A stretch of 64,000 bases of DNA from a virus. Lineage: Duplodnaviria; Caudoviricetes. The number at the start of each line of letters is the position of its first letter. The first letter of the stretch is position 1. The notes below the pieces were generated by a model. The model was given only the letters and a program-made list of their open reading frames with translations. It did not search any database and was not told the DNA's origin. Location of the stretch: positions 1,149 through 65,148 of IMG/VR virus record IMGVR_UViG_3300026116_000040, one strand, 5' to 3'. Below, in pieces: positions 3,060 to 51,882 of the stretch. The translations under genes were made by a program, and so were the position numbers.

Positions 3060-3880
3060 TACATTTTGTATTTAAAATAATCGAAATACCATTTATAATT
3101 TTTATAAATCCAATCAGACACGTCGGATCCCAGAATAGTATTGTGGCTAACCTTTACAGGTTCTAATTTAGAACGTATTTTGTGGTCTCCGAAGGCGCCA
3201 TAAACTTCATCATCCTCGATAGTTATTTGTTCTATGTTATTGAAATCGTGTTGAAAATAATCGAGACCCAAATATTCGTAAATCCTTTTTAATTCAAAAT
3301 TAGGATTGTTGCATAAATCTTCAAAACGAACAAATAAAATATTGGCATCTATTTTTTCTCTAATCACTTGATTTAACCTTTCTACCGCCAGTCCTACCGG
3401 CTGAGAATTCATCCATATATCAACACGTTTAGGCGTTGTTGTTCCACTCATTTCAGCGTGATTGACTATGCCATTATGTTGGTGTTGGCTCTTCCTGAAA
3501 TTCTTCTCCATACTGGATACTATTTCACGTAAATCCCTTACCATACATATTATTTTAGGTGATTCATTAGTTATTTCTTTCAACATGTTATAATGTACTC
3601 CCCAACCTCTGCTTTTGTCTATAATAATCGGCCTTTCGGTAATTGAATTATAATAACCCTCTATACCTTGTTTGCAAAAAGAAAGAAAAGCTTTTTTCAT
3701 TACTGCTGCATCTTGGGCCTTAAACTCAGGCGAGGAAGAGTAATTAGCCCTTGCCCCATACACTAATTCTAATACACCTGATGTTGGAGTAACATATACA
3801 TCATGGTTTTGTCCTAGTATATTTTGAATTATTGTGCTACCTGATCGTGGCAGAGAAGAGTTGTAAAATATTTTTTTCAT
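3059..3880 (-). CDS. PAPS-dependent sulfotransferase
   Basis: SLPRSGST PAPS-binding loop, DKSR, KIICMVRD, VRFEDLC...P...LKRIYEYLGL. Confidence 0.85.
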   Translation of the reverse strand: MKKIFYNSSLPRSGSTIIQNILGQNHDVYVTPTSGVLELVYGARANYSSSPEFKAQDAAVMKKAFLSFCKQGIEGYYNSITERPIIIDKSRGWGVHYNMLKEITNESPKIICMVRDLREIVSSMEKNFRKSQHQHNGIVNHAEMSGTTTPKRVDIWMNSQPVGLAVERLNQVIREKIDANILFVRFEDLCNNPNFELKRIYEYLGLDYFQHDFNNIEQITIEDDEVYGAFGDHKIRSKLEPVKVSHNTILGSDVSDWIYKNYKWYFDYFKYKM

Positions 3881-4758: not shown

Positions 4759-4998
4759 TTACGACACCAACAAAGATAGCAATTTATCTTTAACATCAAC
4801 ATCTGTCCATTGTCCGATTTTATCGTACTCTTCTCCTTCCCATAAAGTGATAGGTTGGCGAAGTTCTTGTATGAAAACCTTCACTTTTTTTTCTGCTGAT
4901 AGATCCACTGTCCTTTCAATAGTTAAAGTAGATAATTTAACCGTTTCTTGAGGAACTACTACTACTTCAATCTCTTTTGGTAATTTTATTGTTTGCAT
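4759..4998 (-). CDS. Hypothetical protein
   Basis: 79-aa ORF with minus-strand TAAATTTG promoter upstream. Confidence 0.6.
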   Translation of the reverse strand: MQTIKLPKEIEVVVVPQETVKLSTLTIERTVDLSAEKKVKVFIQELRQPITLWEGEEYDKIGQWTDVDVKDKLLSLLVS

Positions 4999-5039
4999 GT
5001 GATTTTAATTATTTAATTGATACAAATTTATAAAAAAAA

Positions 5040-41938: not shown

Positions 41939-43300
41939 ATGAAAATATTAAATAACACTGCCACTGAAAACAATGATATTCTCTCCTATGGAGTAGGGTT
42001 AAAGCACGTTGTCGTAGGTGGCGACTTATTTAATATCAGGAAAAAAACAAAAATCTGTGGCATCTACAAAATAACGTCTCCGACTGGTAAAATTTATATA
42101 GGACAATCTAGAGATTTCAGAGTTAGAAAGATGTACTATGAAAGACTTGCTTGTGAAGGGCAAACCAAGTTATATCACTCTTTGAAAAAACACGGGGTCG
42201 ATAAACATAAAATTGAAATCATTCATATTTGCAACCCTGAAGAGTTAGATAAACTTGAAATTGATTACATAAACACTTTTCAAACATTTAATTCTAAAAA
42301 TGGCTTAAATTTACGTGGCGGAGGTTCTAACGGAATAGCTTCGGAAGAAACTCGAAAAAAAATAAGTAATGCAAAAAAGAATCAATCTGAAGAAACGCGT
42401 AAAAAAATTAGTGAATCAAAGAAAGGAACAAAAAATTACTGGCATCGTGATAATAACAGATTTTCTGAGAGCCACTTAAAAAAAATGAGTGAGGCTCAGA
42501 AAGGTCGAATATTTTCAGAAGAAAGCAAAAAGAAAATGTCTGAAAGTAGAAAAGGGATTGTTTTTTCAGAACAACACAAAGAAAATTTAAGGCTATCTCA
42601 TTTGGGGCATAAGCCAACTGAAGAAACAAGAAAAAAACTATCGGAGACGCACAAAGGAGAAAAAAACCATTGGTTTGGGAAAGGCCTTCCGGAAGAAGCA
42701 TTAAAAAAATTGCGTGGAAGAAAACGCAGTGAAGAACAAAGAAAAAAAATGTCGGAAGCGCAAAAAAGTAGACCAATCATAACAGAAGAAACGAGGCGAA
42801 AAATTTCGGAATCTCAAAAGGGAAGAATATTTTCTGAAGAACATAAGAAGCATTTGTCAGAATCGCTAAAAGGGGATAAAAGTCCAAATTTTGGAAAAAA
42901 ACTTCCAGAGGAGACAAGAAGAAAAATGTCCGAATATAGAAAGTTAAATCCTGCATGGAATAAAGGAAAAGTCCTTTCAGAAGAACATAAAAGAAAGTTG
43001 TCTGAAGCGCATAAAGGAGAAAAGAATCATAATTTTAGGAAAAAACAATCTAATGAAACAATCGCAAAAAGAGTAGCAACTAGAGCCGCGACAGAATTAC
43101 GTAGAAACATCACCCCAAAAAAGTCCAAGCCGCCTAGGAAAAAGACTATAGTGCAAAAAGATAAAAATGGGGTTGTAGTAAATATATTTAAAAGCGTTTC
43201 GGAAGCCTCCATGCAAACGGGTATAATACGTACGGGAATTTCTATGGCGCTACTTAAATGCAATAAAACATCAGGCGGATATATATGGGATTATCTTTAA
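41939..43300 (+). CDS. GIY-YIG homing endonuclease with expanded NUMOD3 repeats
   Basis: [18 protein letters not shown]; many SEE(T/H)xxKxSE repeats; NUMOD1-like end. Confidence 0.9.
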   Translation: MKILNNTATENNDILSYGVGLKHVVVGGDLFNIRKKTKICGIYKITSPTGKIYIGQSRDFRVRKMYYERLACEGQTKLYHSLKKHGVDKHKIEIIHICNPEELDKLEIDYINTFQTFNSKNGLNLRGGGSNGIASEETRKKISNAKKNQSEETRKKISESKKGTKNYWHRDNNRFSESHLKKMSEAQKGRIFSEESKKKMSESRKGIVFSEQHKENLRLSHLGHKPTEETRKKLSETHKGEKNHWFGKGLPEEALKKLRGRKRSEEQRKKMSEAQKSRPIITEETRRKISESQKGRIFSEEHKKHLSESLKGDKSPNFGKKLPEETRRKMSEYRKLNPAWNKGKVLSEEHKRKLSEAHKGEKNHNFRKKQSNETIAKRVATRAATELRRNITPKKSKPPRKKTIVQKDKNGVVVNIFKSVSEASMQTGIIRTGISMALLKCNKTSGGYIWDYL

Positions 43301-44281: not shown

Positions 44282-44983
44282 ATGGAAACAGTAAATTCAT
44301 CAACAGGTTACGTTGGGGCCTATTCCTCAAGTAATGATGCCTTAACAGGCGTAGCAGCGTATGGTATTTGTGATCTTCGCAGAGATATTGCTAAAGCAGA
44401 ATCTGATCTTAGAGAAACAATACACAACCAAAGTCTTGTGCAAGGCACAGAATTTTGTGCAGTAAACAAAAGCATCCACGAAGCGGAATGTAATGTTATT
44501 AAAAATGATAATGACATTGCTCACCGAAACACTATTCACCTAAATTCTGTGGAGCGTGACTTGCAAAATCGCATTCTTGAAAATCGTCAAGTGTTAACAT
44601 CTATCATCGGAGACAAAACTGACAGAGTTCTTGACCGTATTGATCGTGAAGCTATTGACCTAAAAAATCAGTTGCGTGCGTTTGAAATGTCTAATGCAGA
44701 AAAATTCTGTGAACTTAAAACTGAAGGATTTAAAAACACTCAAAAGATCCTTGATGAATTAGCTAAAAATAAATATGATGCTATTAAAGATGAGTTGGAT
44801 GAAACTCGTTTATCTAAGTATCATGATAAAAGCGGCTATCAATTTGCTTTGCAAAACCAAGAGATTGCTTCCTTGAAACAAATGATCAACTCAGTAGAGC
44901 AAAATCAAAAATTCAGCTCAAAGACTGTACAATTTGGAACCGGAAATTTAGCCGGTACAGCACAAACTGCTAATCAAGGTTAA
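44282..44983 (+). CDS. Coiled-coil protein
   Basis: Long heptad-like helix; TACATTTG promoter upstream and A-rich translation start. Confidence 0.75.
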   Translation: METVNSSTGYVGAYSSSNDALTGVAAYGICDLRRDIAKAESDLRETIHNQSLVQGTEFCAVNKSIHEAECNVIKNDNDIAHRNTIHLNSVERDLQNRILENRQVLTSIIGDKTDRVLDRIDREAIDLKNQLRAFEMSNAEKFCELKTEGFKNTQKILDELAKNKYDAIKDELDETRLSKYHDKSGYQFALQNQEIASLKQMINSVEQNQKFSSKTVQFGTGNLAGTAQTANQG

Positions 44984-44993
44984 CTAACTAGCA

Positions 44994-45161
44994 ATGGCAA
45001 AAAGACCTGTTAAACAAGAAATTTACAATGAATACAGAAAAGAAACTTGTGACGAAAAAGGATTTCATAAGCCTAATCATTGTAATGCCGCGATCCTTTC
45101 CAAGTTAGACGAGATACTTGAAAAGTTGGAAAAATGGGAATCGCAAAACAAAAAGAAATAA
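44994..45161 (+). CDS. Small protein (55 aa, not in ORF track)
   Basis: MAKRPVKQEIY...ILSKLDEILEKLEKW. Confidence 0.55.
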   Translation: MAKRPVKQEIYNEYRKETCDEKGFHKPNHCNAAILSKLDEILEKLEKWESQNKKK

Positions 45162-45211
45162 TATTTACATATCGTTCGGTTCCGACATGTGCAGTGATAC
45201 GTAAGTATTTT

Positions 45212-45246
45212 AAACCCTGGAGAGCAATCTTCGGGGTTTTTTATTT
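45212..45246 (+). terminator. Intrinsic terminator insulating the tRNA array
   Basis: AAACCCTGGAGA-GCAA-TCTTCGGGGTTTTTT. Confidence 0.85.
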
Positions 45247-45283
45247 TATAAAAAAATAAATTTGTAATTAATAAAATTAGGTG

Positions 45284-45291
45284 TATATTTG
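45284..45291 (+). promoter_or_regulatory. Bacteroidota -7 promoter element, tRNA operon 1
   Basis: TATATTTG 4 nt before the leader ATG. Confidence 0.8.
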
Positions 45292-45295
45292 CATC

Positions 45296-45370
45296 ATGAA
45301 AACAATAACTCTACATCAACAACCGCAGCAACGTCGCCCGAAAAGCGATAAATGGGGTTATTGTGTTTAG
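45296..45370 (+). CDS. Attenuator leader peptide 1 (His/Gln/Pro/Arg)
   Basis: MKTITLHQQPQQRRPKSDKWGYCV, upstream of tRNA-Pro, Gln, His and Arg(ACG). Confidence 0.85.
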   Translation: MKTITLHQQPQQRRPKSDKWGYCV

Positions 45371-45393
45371 GGTATTTAAACATATAAGTAAGG

Positions 45394-45435
45394 AAACTAA
45401 CCCCGACATTGATTTGTTCGGGGTTTTTAGTTTTT
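45394..45435 (+). terminator. Attenuator terminator 1
   Basis: AACCCCGA...TCGGGGTT plus T-tract; GGGGTTA at 45354-45360 is an alternative partner of TAACCCC. Confidence 0.85.
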
Positions 45436-45439
45436 ATAT

Positions 45440-45515
45440 CTTGCGGTATAGGAGTCTGGTTTATCTAACCTCACTTGGAATGAGGAGTACGTGGGTTCAA
45501 ATCCCACTCGCAAGA
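45440..45515 (+). tRNA. trnP: tRNA-Pro(TGG)
   Basis: CCTCA-CTTGGAA-TGAGG anticodon arm, GGTTCAAATCC. Confidence 0.88.
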
Positions 45516-45596
45516 CGAGAGAGGAGACATTGGTTCGAGTCCAATCTGCGGGGCCAAGCCCTGCGGTAGTAACATATAGGAAATACGCCTCTCGTG
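45516..45596 (+). ncRNA. Circularly permuted tRNA-like RNA (YrlA/Y RNA-like architecture)
   Basis: Order: GAGAGG, T-arm ATTGG-TTCGAGT-CCAAT, CTGCGGG-G-CCA, linker, CCTGCGG, D-arm, CCTCTC. Confidence 0.65.
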
Positions 45597-45602
45597 TTTT
45601 AC

Positions 45603-45675
45603 TTTCGGGTCGTCTAGCGGCAGGATTTTGTGCTTTGAACACAAAGACGGTTTGGTTCGAATCCACCCCCGAAAA
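45603..45675 (+). tRNA. trnQ: tRNA-Gln(TTG)
   Basis: TTGTG-CTTTGAA-CACAA; acceptor TTTCGGG/CCCGAAA. Confidence 0.85.
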
Positions 45676-45677
45676 CT

Positions 45678-45747
45678 GTGTTATTAGCATATTGGTAATG
45701 TATTCGCCTGTGAAGCGAGTGAACAGGGTTCGATTCCCGATAACGTG
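45678..45747 (+). tRNA. trnH: tRNA-His(GTG), 3' acceptor strand interrupted by an insertion
   Basis: TTCGC-CTGTGAA-GCGAG; the perfect 3' strand ATAAC|ACC is split, with the remainder at 46219-46221. Confidence 0.75.
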
Positions 45748-46218
45748 GTGCAGCTACCAGAAGGGCGGGATTTTAATCACATAATAAACTTAGAAAGATG
45801 AATAACCAATTAACGCTACAACTGTCAGAAGAGGTACAAAGCCCCGCCTTTTTGGTAGGTGCTGTTACCACCAGTGCTTCTGTCTATGATGAATTCGAGT
45901 GGATAAACAATAATAACTTTGCAAAGGATGCACACAAGCATACTTCATGTGATTGGCAATTATCAAAGAATGAAATTTGGCTTGGCAATACGAGCGGAAA
46001 CAAGCCCTGGGAAAAGGGAGTAGATATTCCAAAAGACTATGATCATTTTAAGACTATTCGATTGGGCCATCAGGCATATTGCATTAAAGGTAAGCCGTTG
46101 AGTAGAGATTACTGTCTGCCTTTGATAATTGACAAATCAGAAGAGCAAGAGTATGATAGAATTTATATGAAGAAAATGTCCGCCTATGCAAGGTAGCGTC
46201 CTTAGCATTGGTGGTAAC
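45745..46218 (-). mobile_element. attC-like gene cassette inserted in tRNA-His
   Basis: GTTACCACCAGTGCT (45864-45878) is inversely repeated at 46204-46218 (14/15); long imperfect palindrome 45741-45866; TAAC at both junctions. Confidence 0.65.
45798..46196 (+). CDS. Cassette-borne hypothetical protein
   Basis: 132-aa ORF starting inside the palindrome loop. Confidence 0.6.
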   Translation: MNNQLTLQLSEEVQSPAFLVGAVTTSASVYDEFEWINNNNFAKDAHKHTSCDWQLSKNEIWLGNTSGNKPWEKGVDIPKDYDHFKTIRLGHQAYCIKGKPLSRDYCLPLIIDKSEEQEYDRIYMKKMSAYAR

Positions 46219-46226
46219 ACCCTTAT

Positions 46227-46298
46227 GTTTCATTAGGCTAAGGGACAAACCATTTGGCTACGAACCAAATATTACACGTTCGAATCGTGTATGAAACA
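46227..46298 (+). tRNA. trnR: tRNA-Arg(ACG)
   Basis: TTTGG-CTACGAA-CCAAA; acceptor GTTTCAT/ATGAAAC. Confidence 0.88.
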
Positions 46299-46309
46299 CT
46301 TAATATTTG

Positions 46310-46382
46310 TGCGAAAGAGTGGTACCGAGCCACTATCTTCGGATTTTCAGTCCGCTGCATAGACCATCTTTGCTACTTCCGC
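46310..46382 (-). tRNA. trnF: tRNA-Phe(GAA)
   Basis: CGGA-CTGAAAA-TCCG; atypical T-loop CTCGGTA. Confidence 0.8.
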
Positions 46383-46387
46383 TTTTG

Positions 46388-46458
46388 CGTTCTCGAATGG
46401 AATCGAACCATTATTAGCTGATTAACAGTCAGTCGTACTACCGTTGTACTACAAGAAC
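46388..46458 (-). tRNA. trnN: tRNA-Asn(GTT)
   Basis: CTGA-CTGTTAA-TCAG; GGTTCGATTCC. Confidence 0.88.
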
Positions 46459-46907
46459 TTTTTTATATACTCTTTATAGTACCCTAATTGGATAACAGTT
46501 TTAATTGCATGGCAATTAGCGCATAAAATTTCACATTTTCTTATTTCTGTTTTTACTGATTCAATAGAATTTCTATCTGCAATTAATGCTGCTACACTTG
46601 ATATTTTACCACTATTATCCTTGTGGTCGAATTGTAAAACAAATGGATTTTTATTTCCGCACTCTTTACAGCCACATAGTCTTTTATATCTTAAAGAAAG
46701 TTCTATTAAATATAGTCTATGATTTTTATCACATTCCTTTTTCTTGTTAACCCTTTTAAATGCCCTAGCATTACTTTTATCTTTTTGTCCTGTCCCACAA
46801 TGAAAGGCTACAGTTCCTTTGGAACATTTTAATTTCCCCGAAATTTTGTTATAAGAAAGTCCCCCCTTTCTTAATTTCAATATTTTTGCTCCAAGTCCTT
46901 TATTCAT
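46449..46907 (-). CDS. HNH endonuclease with N-terminal HTH
   Basis: CKECG...LQFDH...KCEILCANCH; own TATATTTG promoter at 46912-46919. Confidence 0.85.
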   Translation of the reverse strand: MNKGLGAKILKLRKGGLSYNKISGKLKCSKGTVAFHCGTGQKDKSNARAFKRVNKKKECDKNHRLYLIELSLRYKRLCGCKECGNKNPFVLQFDHKDNSGKISSVAALIADRNSIESVKTEIRKCEILCANCHAIKTVIQLGYYKEYIKKFL

Positions 46908-46972
46908 ACTGCAAATATATAAATAAAGGTTCAAATAAAAAAATGTTTTTTAAATCAATTGAACTATATTTG

Positions 46973-47046
46973 CGGGGTTAACGGAAATCGAATCCGTAAT
47001 CTCTTCCGTGACAGGGAAGCGTCATGCGCCAATATGCTGTAACCCC
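46973..47046 (-). tRNA. trnD: tRNA-Asp(GTC)
   Basis: CTTCC-CTGTCAC-GGAAG; acceptor GGGGTTA/TAACCCC. Confidence 0.85.
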
Positions 47047-47048
47047 GT

Positions 47049-47086
47049 AAAACAAAAAACCCTCAAGCTTTTAGCTCAAGGGTTTT
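47049..47086 (-). terminator. Attenuator terminator 2
   Basis: Minus strand AAACCCTTGAGC-TAAAA-GCTTGAGGGTTTTTT; CAAGG/GCTCA just after the leader stop can pair with the 5' arm. Confidence 0.85.
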
Positions 47087-47110
47087 GACAATATCATTCC
47101 ATGAGCCTTG

Positions 47111-47155
47111 TTAGGTTCTATTATCAAAATCGAAATTAAAATTTATTGTTTTCAT
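47111..47155 (-). CDS. Attenuator leader peptide 2 (Asn/Phe/Asp)
   Basis: MKTINFNFDFDNRT; TATATTTG-CACC-ATG leaderless start; upstream of tRNA-Asp, Asn and Phe. Confidence 0.85.
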   Translation of the reverse strand: MKTINFNFDFDNRT

Positions 47156-47179
47156 GGTGCAAATATAACTATTTTTTTG

Positions 47180-47251
47180 TCTCTGTGAAAAGAATCGAAC
47201 TTTTATTTATTGTTTAGAAGACAACTGTACTATCCATTGTACGACACAGAG
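47180..47251 (-). tRNA. trnR: tRNA-Arg(TCT)
   Basis: GTTGT-CTTCTAA-ACAAT; acceptor CTCTGTG/CACAGAG. Confidence 0.85.
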
Positions 47252-47259
47252 TTTATTTG

Positions 47260-47330
47260 TGTCCCTGAACAGAATCGAACTGTTGTCTTCCGGTTAAAAG
47301 CCGGAAGCTCTACCATTGAGCTACAAGGAC
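47260..47330 (-). tRNA. trnK: tRNA-Lys(TTT)
   Basis: TCCGG-CTTTTAA-CCGGA. Confidence 0.9.
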
Positions 47331-47400
47331 AAAACTTTATCTTCTCTTTCTCTTATGAGAAAAAGCAGGTTTTCGTTTTATTTTCCTTGTAGCATTCATG

Positions 47401-47471
47401 TTTCGCAAGATGGAATCGAACCACCGTAAACTGGATGTAAACCAATCACTCTACCATTGAGATATTGCGAA
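47401..47471 (-). tRNA. trnV: tRNA-Val(TAC)
   Basis: ATTGG-TTTACAT-CCAGT. Confidence 0.85.
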
Positions 47472-47477
47472 ATAAAG

Positions 47478-47547
47478 TGGACAGCGTGGGAATCGAACCC
47501 ATACAATCTGATTGCAAATCAGTTGGACTGCCGTTGTCATCGCGCCC
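47478..47547 (-). tRNA. trnA: tRNA-Ala(TGC)
   Basis: CTGA-TTTGCAA-TCAG; G3:U70; irregular acceptor/D region. Confidence 0.75.
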
Positions 47548-47553
47548 ATAATG

Positions 47554-47626
47554 TGTACCCTAAAGGGGTCGAACCTTTATCCCCTTTCTTATGAGGAAAG
47601 TGCTTTACCAATTAAGCTAAAGGAAC
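47554..47626 (-). tRNA. tRNA(CAT), probably Ile2 (lysidine), otherwise Met
   Basis: CTTTC-CTCATAA-GAAAG; third CAT tRNA of the window. Confidence 0.8.
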
Positions 47627-47630
47627 ATAG

Positions 47631-47701
47631 AGTACACAGAAAGAATCGAACTTTCTACTTTTGTTTTGCAGACAAATCTCAATCCATTTGAGTTTATGTA
47701 C
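47631..47701 (-). tRNA. trnC: tRNA-Cys(GCA)
   Basis: TTTGT-CTGCAAA-ACAAA; U73. Confidence 0.85.
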
Positions 47702-47706
47702 TTGTG

Positions 47707-47780
47707 AGCAGATAGCGAGAATCGAACTCGCTCTATTCCAGTTTGGAAGACTGGCGCACCACCAACTATGCGTTATCTGC
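47707..47780 (-). tRNA. trnG: tRNA-Gly(TCC)
   Basis: CCAGT-CTTCCAA-ACTGG; U73. Confidence 0.87.
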
Positions 47781-47789
47781 TTATTATCG

Positions 47790-47862
47790 TATTCGGTACG
47801 GGCATCGAACCCGTATCTGCAAAGTGAAAGTTTGCTATCCTGACCATTTAGAAGAACCGAAC
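47790..47862 (-). tRNA. trnE: tRNA-Glu(TTC)
   Basis: GCAAA-CTTTCAC-TTTGC. Confidence 0.87.
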
Positions 47863-47911
47863 ATTTCGTCGGTCTCCTCACTTAATCTGTTTTTCATTTT
47901 CATTTTTTAAG

Positions 47912-47983
47912 TTGGAATAAAAGGACTTGAACCTTTAGCCTTCGACGTATCAGGTCGCTGCTCCACCATTGAGCTATACTCCA
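47912..47983 (-). tRNA. trnI: tRNA-Ile(GAT)
   Basis: CGAC-CTGATAC-GTCG. Confidence 0.87.
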
Positions 47984-47989
47984 ATATTG

Positions 47990-48060
47990 TTGCGGAGAAG
48001 AGAATCGAACTCTTATCTGAGGCTTATGAGGCCCCCGTGCTACCGTTACACCACCACGCA
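47990..48060 (-). tRNA. trnM: tRNA-Met(CAT)
   Basis: GGGGC-CTCATAA-GCCTC. Confidence 0.82.
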
Positions 48061-48066
48061 ATTTTG

Positions 48067-48138
48067 AGCTTAGATTCGGAACTGACCCGAAAATTGATGC
48101 TTACAAGGCAACTGTTTTTCCCGTTAAACTATCCAAGC
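48067..48138 (-). tRNA. trnT: tRNA-Thr(TGT)
   Basis: TGC-CTTGTAA-GCA; atypical T-loop GTCAGTT. Confidence 0.78.
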
Positions 48139-48143
48139 TTAAG

Positions 48144-48215
48144 CACACCCTCTTTGAATCGAACAAAGTCCTTCGGTTTTGGAGACCGATTGGCTACCAT
48201 TAGCCCAAGATGCGT
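48144..48215 (-). tRNA. trnW: tRNA-Trp(CCA)
   Basis: TCGGT-CTCCAAA-ACCGA; G73. Confidence 0.83.
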
Positions 48216-48217
48216 AT

Positions 48218-48250
48218 AAAATAAAAAACCCCGATTTTTGGTCGAGGCTT
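48218..48250 (-). terminator. Attenuator terminator 4
   Basis: Minus strand GCCTCGA-CCAAAAA-TCGGGGT-TTTTT; CGGGGT at the leader end duplicates the 3' arm. Confidence 0.82.
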
Positions 48251-48276
48251 ACAATTTATATTTTTATAAATTTACT

Positions 48277-48369
48277 TCACCCCGTTATTTTAAATTTCTC
48301 AAACATGGCAATCCCAACACACCATTTTGTTGCGTTTGTTCTCGTGCCTATATTTGTAATTAGTTTCAT
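48277..48369 (-). CDS. Attenuator leader peptide 4 (Trp/Thr/Met/Ile/Glu/Gly/Cys/Ala/Val/Lys/Arg)
   Basis: MKLITNIGTRTNATKWCVGIAMFEKFKITG; contains all 11 amino acids of the downstream 12-tRNA operon. Confidence 0.8.
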   Translation of the reverse strand: MKLITNIGTRTNATKWCVGIAMFEKFKITG

Positions 48370-48398
48370 TGAAAATAGTATTGTTTTAAATATTTCGA

Positions 48399-48447
48399 CA
48401 AATATATGAATAATTGTTTTATATATCCAAATTTATTTTTACATTTG
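48399..48447. promoter_or_regulatory. Back-to-back Bacteroidota promoters for tRNA operons 3 and 4
   Basis: CAAATATA at 48399-48406 (minus) and TACATTTG at 48440-48447 (plus). Confidence 0.8.
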
Positions 48448-48451
48448 TACC

Positions 48452-48520
48452 ATGAAAACACAAAAATCATATAGCCTGTCTTTAAGTTATTCGTTGAGTA
48501 AACAAGAGGCATTCTATTGA
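48452..48520 (+). CDS. Attenuator leader peptide 3 (Ser/Tyr/Leu)
   Basis: MKTQKSYSLSLSYSLSKQEAFY, upstream of tRNA-Leu, Tyr, Ser, Ser and Leu. Confidence 0.87.
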   Translation: MKTQKSYSLSLSYSLSKQEAFY

Positions 48521-48538
48521 TTATACTGAAATAGATAC

Positions 48539-48579
48539 AAAAAAGCCTCTCGAATTTAATTGGGAGGCTTTTTTTATTT
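48539..48579 (+). terminator. Attenuator terminator 3
   Basis: AAAAGCCTCTCGA...TTGGGAGGCTTTTTTT; AGAGGC at 48505-48510 is an alternative partner of GCCTCT. Confidence 0.87.
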
Positions 48580-48653
48580 GCAGCAATGGTGAAACTGGTA
48601 AACACACAGGACTTAAAATCCTGACGCTTTGGGTTCGATTCCCAATTGCTGCA
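48580..48653 (+). tRNA. trnL: tRNA-Leu(TAA), short variable loop
   Basis: CAGGA-CTTAAAA-TCCTG; 5-nt variable region. Confidence 0.88.
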
Positions 48654-48659
48654 CTAAAT

Positions 48660-48733
48660 GGGTTGTTCATTGCTAACAGGTAAGCATTCGGTCTGTAACA
48701 CCGCTAATAGAGGTTCGATTCCTTTACACCCCA
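48660..48733 (+). tRNA. trnY: tRNA-Tyr(GTA), short variable loop
   Basis: CGGT-CTGTAAC-ACCG; ~4-nt variable region. Confidence 0.82.
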
Positions 48734-48738
48734 CATAC

Positions 48739-48824
48739 GGAAGATTAAACAGAAAGGCTCTGTAACCGCCTGCTAAGCGAGTTGTCCTGTAAAAAGGGAT
48801 GGATTTCGAATATTCAGTCTTCCG
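48739..48824 (+). tRNA. trnS: tRNA-Ser(GCT)
   Basis: CGC-CTGCTAA-GCG; long variable arm; G73. Confidence 0.8.
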
Positions 48825-48827
48825 TTT

Positions 48828-48921
48828 GGAAAGTAAAGCAGCTACATTGGAGTGGCGACTAGTCTTGAAAACTAGGTATCGGCGTAAAAAACTGATTGGA
48901 GGTCGGGTCTTCTGCTTTCCG
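48828..48921 (+). tRNA. trnS: tRNA-Ser(TGA)
   Basis: CTAGT-CTTGAAA-ACTAG; long variable arm; G73; atypical T-loop. Confidence 0.8.
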
Positions 48922-48926
48922 CAAAT

Positions 48927-49000
48927 GCCCAATTGGCGAAATTGGTAAACGCGCTACTCTTAGAAAGTAGATTTTACAGGTTCGACTCCTGTATTGGGCA
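48927..49000 (+). tRNA. trnL: tRNA-Leu(TAG), short variable loop
   Basis: CTACT-CTTAGAA-AGTAG; 5-nt variable region. Confidence 0.88.
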
Positions 49001-49664
49001 CAATTATAGCGTTCTTGTCCAACCCTTTAAATTTGTCATTTATCGTCTTCCTTTGGACATCAACATACTCTACACCCCATTGGTATGTCTTGTTTATTTT
49101 GCTCAGTCTTTTTTCATACATCTTATGCCGGCTGTAAACATAGTCGGGAGAAATGTACTTATAATGTAGTAATGGAACGGTGAATGGACTGTAAATAATA
49201 TTACCAATAGGATTTGCGGTATGGCAACCTGGCAAATAATTTATTTCTTGGATTTGATTGGGTCTAAAAAAACAAAGTTTGCTATACATTGAGTTAGGAA
49301 CGCCCAAACGCGAAGGTGGCGGACCAATCATATCGTAGCCTTTCGTTTTTACGATGGATGTATTTTTTAAGTCGGCGTTTACCGGCAACTCTAAAAATTC
49401 ATCAATGTCAACTACGCACACCCAGTCCGCTTTGCTTTTCTTCCAACAGCTGTTTTTTATTTTAAGATACAAATCATCCCGTATTTCATCTTGTGAATTA
49501 TAATCGATCAGCGTGCATCCAGCAGCATTTATTATTTCACGGGAATTGTCGATAGACCGGTTATCGAAAATGGTGATGTTGGCCCCCATAGATTGATAAT
49601 GCTTTATGAAGTGGGGCAGTAAGAACGCTTCATTGTAACAGATACTAAATACGTCGATGTTCAT
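48960..49664 (-). CDS. GT2-like glycosyltransferase
   Basis: YNEAFLLPHFIKHY, FDNRSID, DWVCVVDIDEFL; 3' end overlaps tRNA-Leu antisense. Confidence 0.85.
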   Translation of the reverse strand: MNIDVFSICYNEAFLLPHFIKHYQSMGANITIFDNRSIDNSREIINAAGCTLIDYNSQDEIRDDLYLKIKNSCWKKSKADWVCVVDIDEFLELPVNADLKNTSIVKTKGYDMIGPPPSRLGVPNSMYSKLCFFRPNQIQEINYLPGCHTANPIGNIIYSPFTVPLLHYKYISPDYVYSRHKMYEKRLSKINKTYQWGVEYVDVQRKTINDKFKGLDKNAIIVPNTGVEPVKSTF

Positions 49665-49756
49665 GTTGTAGTTATTTAAGACACCAAAGCCGCCTACGTG
49701 AACGTAAGCGGCTTGTTTTACAGATAAACCTTACGGGGTTTGGCTGTCGGTTGGAA

Positions 49757-50538: not shown

Positions 50539-51867
50539 TTATTTTAGTTTTTTTCTTTTAGCTATTTTCGCCTTCTCCCTTTCGATCAACTCTTTATTTT
50601 CTTTCGATATGCCTGCCGCTAACGCCTTAACGCCTTTGCCTGTTTTTTCTTCTGCGCGTTGTTCCGATAGAGCTATAGCAACGGCTTGTTTTGGGTTTTT
50701 CACTTTTTGTCCAGATGAAGTTTTTAACTCCCCCTTTTTAAATTCCTTCATCACCTTTTTTATTTTATCAGTGCCTTTAGGAGAGGACAGAGTTCCGCCG
50801 GTGGCGAGTTTTTCAATAGTAATAATTCGCGGATTAACAATCTCTGCAAGTTTTTTAAAATTTTCTTTACTTAAAACAATCTCCCCTAATTTCATGTTAC
50901 CAACGCCTATTGCCGATACTGTATACCAACTTAATTTGTTTTTTTGATTGTAAGTGACGTCATCTATTGGCATTCCAGCATAATACGCTTTCTTGCCCTT
51001 TATTTGGATGGAATTGGCCGAATACTTTTCGCCTCTTTCGTCTATAAGACTTTCTTCCTTTGATGTTGCTTTTTTCTCCTTAATCCTCCCCTCCATCAAC
51101 TCAACATACTTTTTCTTCAGGTTTTCCGGCAATAGCGGATTTTTTTTAGCTGCCGCTATTTCTTTTTCCATCTGCTCGATGGTTTGTTCTGATTTTTTGA
51201 TTATTGGCATTACGGTTCCTCCTTGGTTGTATGTTTTTGGTTTGTCAATAAAAAATATGGTATCTATGAAATATAAAGTGTCATCTTTTGTTAGCACATT
51301 TTCATCATGTAGGTCTTCTAATATTATCCCTAATTCAGGATTACGGTAATCATTATTTCTTATGTTTGTAAATCCGTTTTCCAACATAAACGCTTTTACT
51401 TTTGCTATATCTGTTATACTTGTAGCTTTTATTAATGGTTGCTCTACAATAGAATATAATTTGTTTTCTGTTTCTGTGAAGCCTATTAATTCATAAGCGG
51501 TAATGGGGAAGAAAAAATTATGCAACAATAGGCTATAGAGATAGTCTTCCCAAGATAAATAACAAATCGCATCATTTAATTTAATTACAGTGTTTTCATC
51601 TTTCAGGTAAACCTTTTGCTCCATCCCTTGAGCTGCGCTAGGCTTAGATATTATTTCACCTACACTTGGAGAAGCCCACAACTTTTTATCTGTAATATAA
51701 CTTTTTAATAATTCTATTTCTTCTTGTTCGTGTTGCTTGCTTCCTTTAGCCAACGCACTTGTGCCTTGAACTCTTTTAAGGTGACTGGACGCTGCTTCGA
51801 TAGCTGCCCCTTTTGCAACTTTGCTAATTCCTGAAATGACATCTCGTATGGTTTTATTGGTTATCAT
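50539..51867 (-). CDS. Polyvalent-protein-type kinase fused to further modules (C-terminal DUF6496-like)
   Basis: GMEQKVY...VIKLN...LHNFFFP..AYELIGF...DLHDENVL...FID; C-terminal VMKEFKKGELKTSSGQKVKNPKQAVAIALSE. Confidence 0.75.
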   Translation of the reverse strand: MITNKTIRDVISGISKVAKGAAIEAASSHLKRVQGTSALAKGSKQHEQEEIELLKSYITDKKLWASPSVGEIISKPSAAQGMEQKVYLKDENTVIKLNDAICYLSWEDYLYSLLLHNFFFPITAYELIGFTETENKLYSIVEQPLIKATSITDIAKVKAFMLENGFTNIRNNDYRNPELGIILEDLHDENVLTKDDTLYFIDTIFFIDKPKTYNQGGTVMPIIKKSEQTIEQMEKEIAAAKKNPLLPENLKKKYVELMEGRIKEKKATSKEESLIDERGEKYSANSIQIKGKKAYYAGMPIDDVTYNQKNKLSWYTVSAIGVGNMKLGEIVLSKENFKKLAEIVNPRIITIEKLATGGTLSSPKGTDKIKKVMKEFKKGELKTSSGQKVKNPKQAVAIALSEQRAEEKTGKGVKALAAGISKENKELIEREKAKIAKRKKLK

Positions 51868-51882
51868 GCACAAATATAGTAA

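Follow-up and report, generated by a model that had tools for sequence, protein, structure and literature searches.

What decides whether a block of viral transfer RNA (tRNA) genes is transcribed? This question is raised by a locus in the 64-kb window analysed here (the term denotes the whole stretch of DNA), which is part of a 65-kb IMG/VR virus record with an estimated completeness of 32% and about 37% G+C. The virus was assigned to Bacteroidota hosts and is possibly tailless. On the minus strand, a 14-codon open reading frame (ORF) rich in Asn, Phe and Asp codons is found in front of an intrinsic terminator and the genes for tRNA-Asp, tRNA-Asn and tRNA-Phe. An earlier note on this DNA had described the arrangement, at 46310-47167, as an attenuator placed before these three tRNA genes, and the coordinates fit the block called unit B in this work. 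Based on the anatomy of the block, a modelled RNA switch, three sister units in the window and 11 leaders in other phage sequences, unit B probably acts as a transcription attenuator of the ribosome-mediated (leader-peptide) kind, through which a Bacteroidota virus gates three of its tRNA genes.

Along the minus strand, unit B consists of a promoter-like box, the leader ORF, the terminator, tRNA-Asp, an HNH endonuclease gene, tRNA-Asn and tRNA-Phe (Table 1). The leader starts right after tRNA-Arg(tct) of unit C, which ends at 47179, and tRNA-Phe converges on tRNA-Arg(acg) of unit A. Up to that convergent gene, ARAGORN and Rfam detected only Asp, Asn and Phe tRNAs downstream of the leader, as had been claimed. 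The box is of the TANNTTTGNNNNATG type, which we take to be the -7 box of the Bacteroidota promoter consensus, TAnnTTTG. The window contains nine copies of the TANNTTTGNNNNATG motif, whereas the expected number is 1.65 +/- 1.27 (none of 100 shuffles reached nine), and four of these copies fall in the tRNA region. A sigma-70-like TTCACA-16-TATATT was also found upstream of the leader, at 47189..47162. The 25-nt promoter/start module of leader B is 96% identical to that of leader A. The spacing between box and ATG implies that the unit B mRNA is probably leaderless or nearly so. The earlier note had reported a leaderless ORF of 14 residues with eight consecutive Asn/Phe/Asp codons; the ORF and the run are indeed there, read on the minus strand, and its leaderless character follows from the spacing of the motifs.

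The codons of leader B are ATG AAA ACA ATA AAT TTT AAT TTC GAT TTT GAT AAT AGA ACC TAA. T-ending codons were preferred (7/8), and the same preference was observed in the virus's own genes (62-73%). In order to evaluate how exceptional the run is, all ATG ORFs of 8-45 residues in the six frames of the window were collected (n = 958). A run of at least eight residues from the set {D,N,F} was found in one of them, leader B itself; the next longest run was 5, in three ORFs. Asn, Phe and Asp together account for 0.161 of the codons in 57 long ORFs. After the initial Met-Lys-Thr (MKT), 8 of the 11 residues of leader B belong to the set, whereas the composition of the other leaders gives an expected fraction of 0.15 (binomial P = 3.5e-5). 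We also considered whether the run arose as a tandem repeat and rejected this, as Tandem Repeats Finder reports none at leader B.

The terminator is the best-scoring terminator-like site between 44900 and 49700, and its stem ends 9 nt upstream of tRNA-Asp. Its fold has a minimum free energy of -29.8 kcal/mol (z score -3.56), and only one of 200 shuffled sequences folded equally well. According to the earlier note, CAAGG and GCTCA just after the leader stop are complementary to CCTTG and TGAGC in the terminator. Both are complementary to the 5' arm, but they cannot pair with it simultaneously, as their order is permuted. The antiterminator predicted here is GGCUCA:UGAGCU plus GG:CC.

This switch was modelled by folding the nascent RNA up to the terminator loop with the ribosome-covered part masked, assuming from general knowledge a footprint of 12 nt past the A-site codon. 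With a ribosome stalled anywhere in the run, a helix between GGCUCA..GG and CC..UGAGCU in the 5' arm of the terminator was predicted, with an energy of -11.2 kcal/mol and a mean arm pairing probability of 0.63. With the ribosome at the stop codon the antiterminator segment was masked, and the values were -0.5 kcal/mol and 0.27. The difference between the stalled and the stop-masked energies was -10.7 kcal/mol for the native sequence versus -2.5 +/- 2.2 kcal/mol in 500 shuffles of the 24-nt linker, one of which reached the native value. In the model, all four units of the window form an antiterminator when the ribosome is stalled and have it masked when the ribosome is at the stop. For unit A, the antiterminator was predicted at -13.7 to -18.6 kcal/mol when stalled and -2.0 kcal/mol at the stop. 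In units A and D, the regulatory codons were additionally predicted to pair with the antiterminator strand, in the classical 1:2 arrangement.

The four attenuator-like units (A, B, C and D) jointly cover the whole viral tRNA set, which forms a dense cluster at 45440-49001 (ARAGORN and Rfam). The {P,Q,H,R} run of 9 in leader A and the {L,Y,S} run of 11 in leader D are each unique among the 958 ORFs, with next longest runs of 5 and 6, respectively. Leader C is unexceptional by run length, its set comprising 11 amino acids, yet 23 of its 27 residues fall in the set, compared with 0.39 expected (P = 8.5e-7). Behind it are 12 tRNAs, in the order Trp, Thr, Met, Ile, Glu, Gly, Cys, Met, Ala, Val, Lys and Arg(tct). 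Four of the five out-of-set residues after Met1 of leader C are N, N, F and F, decoded by the tRNAs of unit B downstream on the same strand, which suggests that read-through from unit C into unit B may matter. The residues of leaders C and D predicted tRNAs for Tyr, two Ser, Cys and Ala, which were then found: these five genes had been overlooked by ARAGORN at default settings and were recovered by Rfam or relaxed ARAGORN. With them, the cluster spans all 20 amino acids.

Leaders of the same design were searched for in other sequences using the promoter and the first three codons only (TATATTTGCANCATGAAAACA). The query carries no information beyond MKT, and any match between leader residues and the tRNA block behind is therefore an independent observation. 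At least 120 metagenome matches and 19 viral-contig matches were obtained, most of them ordinary gene starts. Among the 120 metagenome matches listed, four precede a same-strand tRNA within 1.5 kb, and all four are short leaders of 21-26 residues. Five of the 19 viral-contig matches precede tRNAs and represent two distinct leaders; a second leader in contig L251 was found by reading the gap. Thus, every match with a same-strand tRNA behind it, among the matches listed, is a short leader.

The search was extended to cultured phages. A blastn search with the leader region of L258 matched, at 71% identity, a part of Tenacibaculum phage Gundel_1 (MT732474.1, Pachyviridae; L266 in Table 1) that carries no annotation, and two leaders were identified there. 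The first tRNA of the leader 1 block (3162-3230) scored 27.8 bits with Rfam and was aligned to the tRNA-Tyr of L258, and the loop of a tRNA annotated as 'Undet' reads GCA, i.e. Cys (Rfam, 42 bits). A tRNA match led to Cellulophaga phage Calle_2 (MT732433.1, Pervagoviridae; L267), with three leaders. Its runs match the tRNA blocks in 16/16 residues for YNNFSWYSNCSFSSYN of leader 2 and 14/14 for RLLHQEPLEQLRLP of leader 3, counting Tyr, Cys and Glu tRNAs that are absent from the GenBank annotation. Relaxed ARAGORN finds all three, and Rfam confirms Cys (36 bits) and Glu (40.9 bits). The unannotated tRNAs of both phages were predicted from the leader peptides.

In total, 11 external leaders were found in seven other phage sequences, two of which are cultured phages. 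The residues clearly follow the downstream tRNAs in ten of them, the exception being L198 (10/23). Per-leader binomial P values for the contig leaders, relative to the composition of the other leaders, ranged from 4e-5 to 0.16. The weakest cases were L251 leader 1 and L198, the latter scoring 6/23 (P = 0.075) without its tRNA-Ser, which was found later, and 10/23 with it. In L251, 22 tRNAs are divided between two blocks, and the leaders of these blocks complement each other. The Asn and Phe tRNAs are found together in one block of the window, L187 and Calle_2 and in separate blocks in L251 and Gundel_1, and the leaders follow the split each time. Across the 15 leaders, the residues track the tRNA genes behind them, least clearly in L198, and the match includes codon families: AGY and TCN codons go with the respective Ser tRNAs, and CGY codons with Arg(acg). 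Eight external leaders were folded (six contig leaders and the two of Gundel_1; the three of Calle_2 lay outside this set). Their antiterminators were predicted at -15 to -24 kcal/mol with a stalled ribosome and about 0 at the stop. In all 12 modelled leaders, four from the window and eight external, a segment at the end of the ORF copies the terminator 3' arm and is masked by the terminating ribosome.

As a positive control, a leader from Bacteroidota was examined in L140:1724 (+) and L226:2683 (-), where an apparently leaderless MKTITNNTWWWNNLRQ and a terminator precede trpE (Pfam Anth_synt_I_N, E = 5.6e-25). By its sequence, this is a trp attenuator of the classical type, and it uses the same promoter/MKT module as the viral leaders. 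The model gave an antiterminator of -11.1 kcal/mol when stalled and about 0 at the stop.

Table 1. Positions of the features of units A-D in the window, and leaders and tRNAs of related phage sequences.
Feature	Position	Strand	Remarks
Unit B, promoter-like -7 box TATATTTG	47167..47160	-	then CACC, then ATG (4-nt gap)
Unit B, leader ORF MKTINFNFDFDNRT, 14 residues + TAA	47155..47111	-	ATG 47155..47153; stop 47113..47111
Unit B, regulatory run, codons 5-12 (AAT TTT AAT TTC GAT TTT GAT AAT)	47143..47120	-	eight consecutive Asn/Phe/Asp codons
Unit B, post-stop segment CAAGGCTCA	47110..47102	-	directly 3' of the leader stop
Unit B, antiterminator 5' strand CAAGGCTCATGG	47110..47099	-	directly after the leader stop; within the footprint of a terminating ribosome
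Unit B, intrinsic terminator	stem 47086..47056; whole element 47086..47045	-	14 pairs, loop of 3, T-run tail TTGTTTTACG
Unit B, tRNA-Asp (gtc)	47046..46972	-	ARAGORN; Rfam RF00005, 43.7 bits
Unit B, promoter-like TATATTTG box of HNH gene	46919..46912	-	motif search
Unit B, HNH endonuclease gene, 152 residues	46907..46449	-	between tRNA-Asp and tRNA-Asn; PHROG 2255, E 2.1e-19
Unit B, tRNA-Asn (gtt)	46458..46387	-	ARAGORN; Rfam, 65.7 bits
Unit B, tRNA-Phe (gaa)	46382..46309	-	ARAGORN; Rfam, 51.9 bits; last gene of the unit
Unit A	45284..46299	+	tRNA Pro, Gln, His, 132-residue ORF, Arg(acg)
Unit A, box (in TATATTTGCATC-ATG)	45284-45291	+	
Unit A, leader MKTITLHQQPQQRRPKSDKWGYCV	45296-45370	+	
Unit A, GGGGTTA	45354-45360	+	
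Unit A, terminator	about 45399-45435	+	
Unit C	48406..47179	-	directly upstream of unit B, same strand; 12 tRNAs
Unit C, box	48406..48399	-	
Unit C, leader, 30 residues	48369..48277	-	
Unit C, terminator	48250..48226	-	
Unit C, tRNA-Cys (gca)	47630-47701	-	Rfam, 53 bits; missed by default ARAGORN
Unit C, tRNA-Ala (tgc)	47479-47547	-	weak, Rfam 25 bits, below threshold; missed by default ARAGORN
Unit D	48440..49001	+	tRNA Leu(taa), Tyr, Ser(gct), Ser(tga), Leu(tag)
Unit D, box (in TACATTTGTACC-ATG)	48440-48447	+	
Unit D, leader MKTQKSYSLSLSYSLSKQEAFY	48452-48520	+	
Unit D, terminator	about 48539-48579	+	
Unit D, tRNA-Tyr (gta)	48660-48734	+	Rfam/relaxed ARAGORN; missed by default ARAGORN
Unit D, tRNA-Ser (gct)	48739-48824	+	Rfam/relaxed ARAGORN; missed by default ARAGORN
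Unit D, tRNA-Ser (tga)	48833-48922	+	Rfam/relaxed ARAGORN; missed by default ARAGORN
L187 (= L254, L255, L258, L259), leader MKTNQSYQFNFNHESNLKEDDLV			then Tyr, Asn, Gln, Glu, Phe
L198, leader MKTQNLYCLSFSLSYSIVTDRRAYIF			then Leu, Leu, Ser, HNH gene, Tyr
L221, leader MKTINVHQQPVQLRQKSVVMGHCV			then Pro, Gln, His, Arg
L242, leader MKTTSLYLSLSYSLTSDRDLI			then Tyr, Leu, Ser, Ser, Leu
L251, leader 1 MKTTNLFSQSYLFCQEPLRNLGFITHDII			then Pro, Glu, Tyr, Gln, Ser, Leu, Phe, Ser
L251, leader 2 MKTIRTHKNNAVIIDWRTGGSTEGFVYM			then Ile, Met, Asn, Arg, Trp, Asp, Ala, Gly, Arg, Lys, Thr, Val, Met, His
Gundel_1, leader 1 MKTKLYSYSCFSSWFKNRAG	L266:3038-3100		then Tyr-like, Trp, Phe, Ser, Cys-like, Ser
Gundel_1, leader 2 MKTNNLHIQQNNLPVFLEGFLYM	L266:3688-3759		then HNH gene, Pro, Gln, Met, Asn, Leu
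Gundel_1, tRNAs without annotation or undetermined	L266:3162-3230, 3238-3305, 3483-3556		Tyr-like, Trp, Cys-like
Calle_2, leader 1 MKTIMNIATDIRTKGVKLLGRSRVL			then Lys, Ile, Gly, Met, Asp, Thr, Val, Arg
Calle_2, leader 2 MKTNMTYNNFSWYSNCSFSSYNVERLYLS			then Tyr, Ser, Ser, Asn, Trp, Phe, Cys
Calle_2, leader 3 MNARLLHQEPLEQLRLPSRVSYHGIDELS			then Pro, Glu, Gln, His, one undetermined tRNA, Leu, Arg
Calle_2, tRNAs without annotation or undetermined	L267:4224-4295, 4928-5002, 3640-3722		Cys, Glu, Tyr

From the sequence we infer where transcription of unit B begins, that its leader is translated with ribosome and polymerase coupled, and what physiological signal is sensed. Transcription would start at or just before the AUG of the leader, and the ribosome would read the eight Asn/Phe/Asp codons while RNA polymerase makes the next 60-90 nt. 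With ample Asn-, Phe- and Asp-tRNAs, the ribosome would reach the UAA and its footprint would cover CAAGGCUCAUGG; the 14-bp terminator would then form and transcription would stop before tRNA-Asp. If any of the three tRNAs were scarce, the ribosome would stall in the run, the post-stop segment would pair with the 5' arm of the terminator and the terminator would be blocked. In this case tRNA-Asp, the HNH gene, tRNA-Asn and tRNA-Phe would be transcribed, and the products could relieve the stall, closing a negative-feedback loop for the Asn/Phe/Asp codon set. Plausible causes of scarcity would be the codon demand of the virus itself, host shut-off and tRNA-cleaving defences of the host.

Several points weigh against this mechanism. 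In the model, unit B has no protecting 1:2 hairpin and its antiterminator forms even in the absence of a ribosome, so that untranslated transcripts would read through. Its switch is also the weakest of the four, with an antiterminator of -11.2 kcal/mol against a terminator fold of -17.7 kcal/mol (ribosome-at-stop fold). The HNH gene has a box of its own, and tRNA-Asn and tRNA-Phe may be made independently of the attenuator. Only 12 nt separate unit B from the final tRNA gene of unit C, and read-through from there may contribute some of the unit B RNA, with a different 5' end. We know of no demonstration that transcription and translation are coupled in Bacteroidota. The external leaders, found via a shared promoter/start motif, may represent one lineage of tRNA cassettes and not have arisen independently of each other.

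Moreover, searches with flanking and core proteins and with motifs did not yield any close relative in which leader B has a homologue. The flanking 233-residue protein retrieved no relative, and the flanking glycosyltransferase retrieved three loci at 33% identity, none with tRNAs. With the putative ATPase, one 53%-identical fragment was obtained, which contains one weak tRNA-like match and no cluster. None of the 120 matches listed for TTTGNNNNATGAAAACAATAA in viral contigs precedes a tRNA block, and a blastn search of the window tRNA cluster against cultured phages returned tRNA pieces only. The attenuator reading of unit B is carried mainly by the comparison with its sister units and the external leaders.

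Three other explanations were considered. The hairpin at 47086..47056 might merely end the 12-tRNA operon of unit C, the 14-codon ORF being a chance frame in an AT-rich spacer. The hairpin does lie about 95 nt past tRNA-Arg(tct) on the same strand, and codons for Asn, Phe and Asp are frequent and rich in A and T. Nevertheless, only one ORF in the census holds such a run, and its residues are an exact match to the three tRNAs behind it. The near-identity of the start module to that of leader A, the rarity of an equally good switch among the linker shuffles and the recurrence of the design 14 more times make this explanation hardly credible. It could also be proposed that the effect of the short ORF is post-transcriptional: translating it, or the peptide made, would control how the tRNA precursor is processed or how stable it is, or the peptide would have a role of its own, with no choice between terminator and antiterminator. 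This would agree with an antiterminator weaker than the terminator and with tRNA precursors being processed beside the leader. However, the peptides share only MKT and are otherwise wholly different in sequence, and the ribosome-masked copy of the terminator 3' arm at the ORF end, found in all modelled leaders, is specific to attenuation. We regard an effect of this kind as very improbable.

The remaining explanation keeps the mechanism and changes the signal: the leader would respond to amino-acid starvation through uncharged tRNA, as a growth-state sensor that happens to drive tRNA genes. Attenuators cannot separate a missing tRNA from an uncharged one, as described for trp, his and phe attenuation (PMC1183508), and unit B is built exactly like the trpE leader in L226. 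On the other hand, extra tRNA cannot relieve the lack of an amino acid, and no benefit to the virus is obvious. The residues follow the downstream tRNA genes in the 15 leaders, codon families included, which fits feedback by the products. A starvation signal is thus considered unlikely, and the tRNA-sensing attenuator is preferred.

At a broader level, we lean towards the view that Bacteroidota viruses run their tRNA genes as codon-family homeostats. Each block would be autoregulated via a codon-matched leader, and only those tRNAs would be supplied that are short because of codon mismatch, host shut-off or anticodon nucleases. In this way the virus would gauge the decoding capacity of the infected cell separately for each codon family. 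The module would have been borrowed from host amino-acid attenuators and would travel with tRNA cassettes between unrelated virus families (the possibly tailless virus studied here, Pachyviridae and Pervagoviridae).

The surroundings of the tRNA genes were also inspected. The tRNA region is flanked at 41939-43300 (+) by a probable homing endonuclease, in which five NUMOD3 motifs were detected (E = 7.8e-48), and on the other side by a polyvalent-protein kinase at 50539-51873 (-) (PF18762, E = 4.4e-55). No Pfam match was obtained for eight of ten large window ORFs tested. HNH genes are present within the tRNA blocks of three phages, at 46449-46919 (-) of the window, L198:5770-6291 and L266:3893-4399 (Gundel_1). 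The window and L198 proteins share an N-terminal stretch of 47 residues at 38% identity (E = 6e-9), and the N-terminus of the Gundel_1 copy was judged similar by eye. These genes look like homing elements targeting tRNA arrays. A tblastn search with the HNH protein retrieved a widespread family and was uninformative for unit B.

The tRNAs of unit A (Pro, Gln, His and Arg(acg)) all decode codons starting with C, and unit D groups the three kinds of tRNA with a long variable arm, Leu, Ser and Tyr. Between tRNA-His and tRNA-Arg(acg) of unit A, the 132-residue ORF (45798-46196, +) has no Pfam or PHROG match. In the related contig L221 this ORF is absent and His and Arg are 3 nt apart, and a variant contig from sequencing run X2 stops matching after 45744; based on both observations, the ORF was read as a recent insertion. 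The sequence of the window is present in nine DNA sequencing runs, one of which may be its source, and no RNA run is listed for it. Contigs of the window from four sequencing runs are mostly identical low-depth pieces. A variant contig of run X2 (depth 8.5) covers leader C (window 48297-48408) with nine substitutions; in our reading, the changes of Thr to Lys and Thr to Ile stay in the tRNA set and one triple change does not.

The control of phage tRNA genes appears to be essentially undescribed. No account of leader-peptide or attenuator control of tRNA genes was found in full-text searches of the literature. In the passages searched, a 2024 opinion piece on phage tRNAs does not mention attenuation, leader, promoter or terminator (PMC11025619), the Gundel/Calle genome paper gives tRNA counts and nothing on attenuation or leaders (PMC8776804), and the paper on phi38:1, a phage placed with Calle_2 in the genus Callevirus (PMC8776804), mentions host tRNA genes only (PMC5335546). 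If the proposed mechanism is correct, unit B would be the first case found of tRNA genes under feedback from a translational sensor of their own products, and the split of phage tRNA arrays into blocks with odd amino-acid groupings would be explained. Phage tRNAs have been described as a counter-defence against tRNA-cleaving systems (PMC11464382, PMC11555353); an attenuator would switch this counter-measure on only under tRNA-cleaving attack. The leader residues may also serve as an annotation tool, having predicted at least seven tRNAs missed by default ARAGORN in the window or by GenBank in the two cultured phages. The two cultured phage-host pairs, Gundel_1 with Tenacibaculum sp. AHE14PA and Calle with Cellulophaga sp. 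HaHa_2_95, have been deposited in a public collection (PMC8776804), which makes the attenuator reading directly testable.

Among known systems, T-boxes bind uncharged tRNA directly via a specifier codon, without an ORF, and act through a choice between terminator and antiterminator. Unit B would resemble them in controlling translation-related genes by terminator choice and differ in that its sensor would be the ribosome. No T-box match was found with Rfam in 44900-49700 at E values up to 1. In the thr leader (Thr/Ile) and the ilvGMEDA leader (Ile/Val/Leu), several amino acids are sampled and stalling at any of them leads to read-through. Unit B is similar in that several amino acids would be sampled by one leader. 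In those systems the sampled amino acids share a pathway, whereas in the phage leaders the common point is the downstream tRNA genes and the set varies by phage. The pheST leader controls a translation component, Phe-tRNA synthetase. In Proteobacteria, Phe attenuation is exercised by the pheL leader before pheA (PMC3082878). These Phe leaders (pheL/pheA; pheST; Rfam RF01859) likewise have an ORF with Phe codons, an intrinsic terminator and an antiterminator masked at the stop. Unit B differs from them in its presumed targets, tRNA genes instead of enzymes, in its mixed run of three residues, and in its apparently leaderless mRNA with a Bacteroidota-type promoter. No Rfam leader family matches at unit B. 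Sub-threshold Phe_leader (RF01859) matches were observed for unit D (28 bits) and Gundel_1 (27.9 bits), compared with a gathering score of 55 bits, and a leader match at unit C reached 21.4 of 41 bits (families searched including Trp_leader, RF00513).

The closest counterpart is the Bacteroidota trp leader of L140 and L226, which shares with the viral units the box, the 4-nt spacing, the ATG AAA ACA start, the short ORF, the terminator and an antiterminator predicted only for the stalled ribosome. Its run is WWW and it regulates trpE, following the classical logic, in which the genes under control serve to synthesize or charge the amino acid that is sensed. Downstream of leader B, the genes found are instead tRNA-Asp, the HNH gene, tRNA-Asn and tRNA-Phe. 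The viral units thus place the same module before tRNA genes, and the novelty of unit B lies in having such genes, not biosynthesis or synthetase genes, behind an attenuator.

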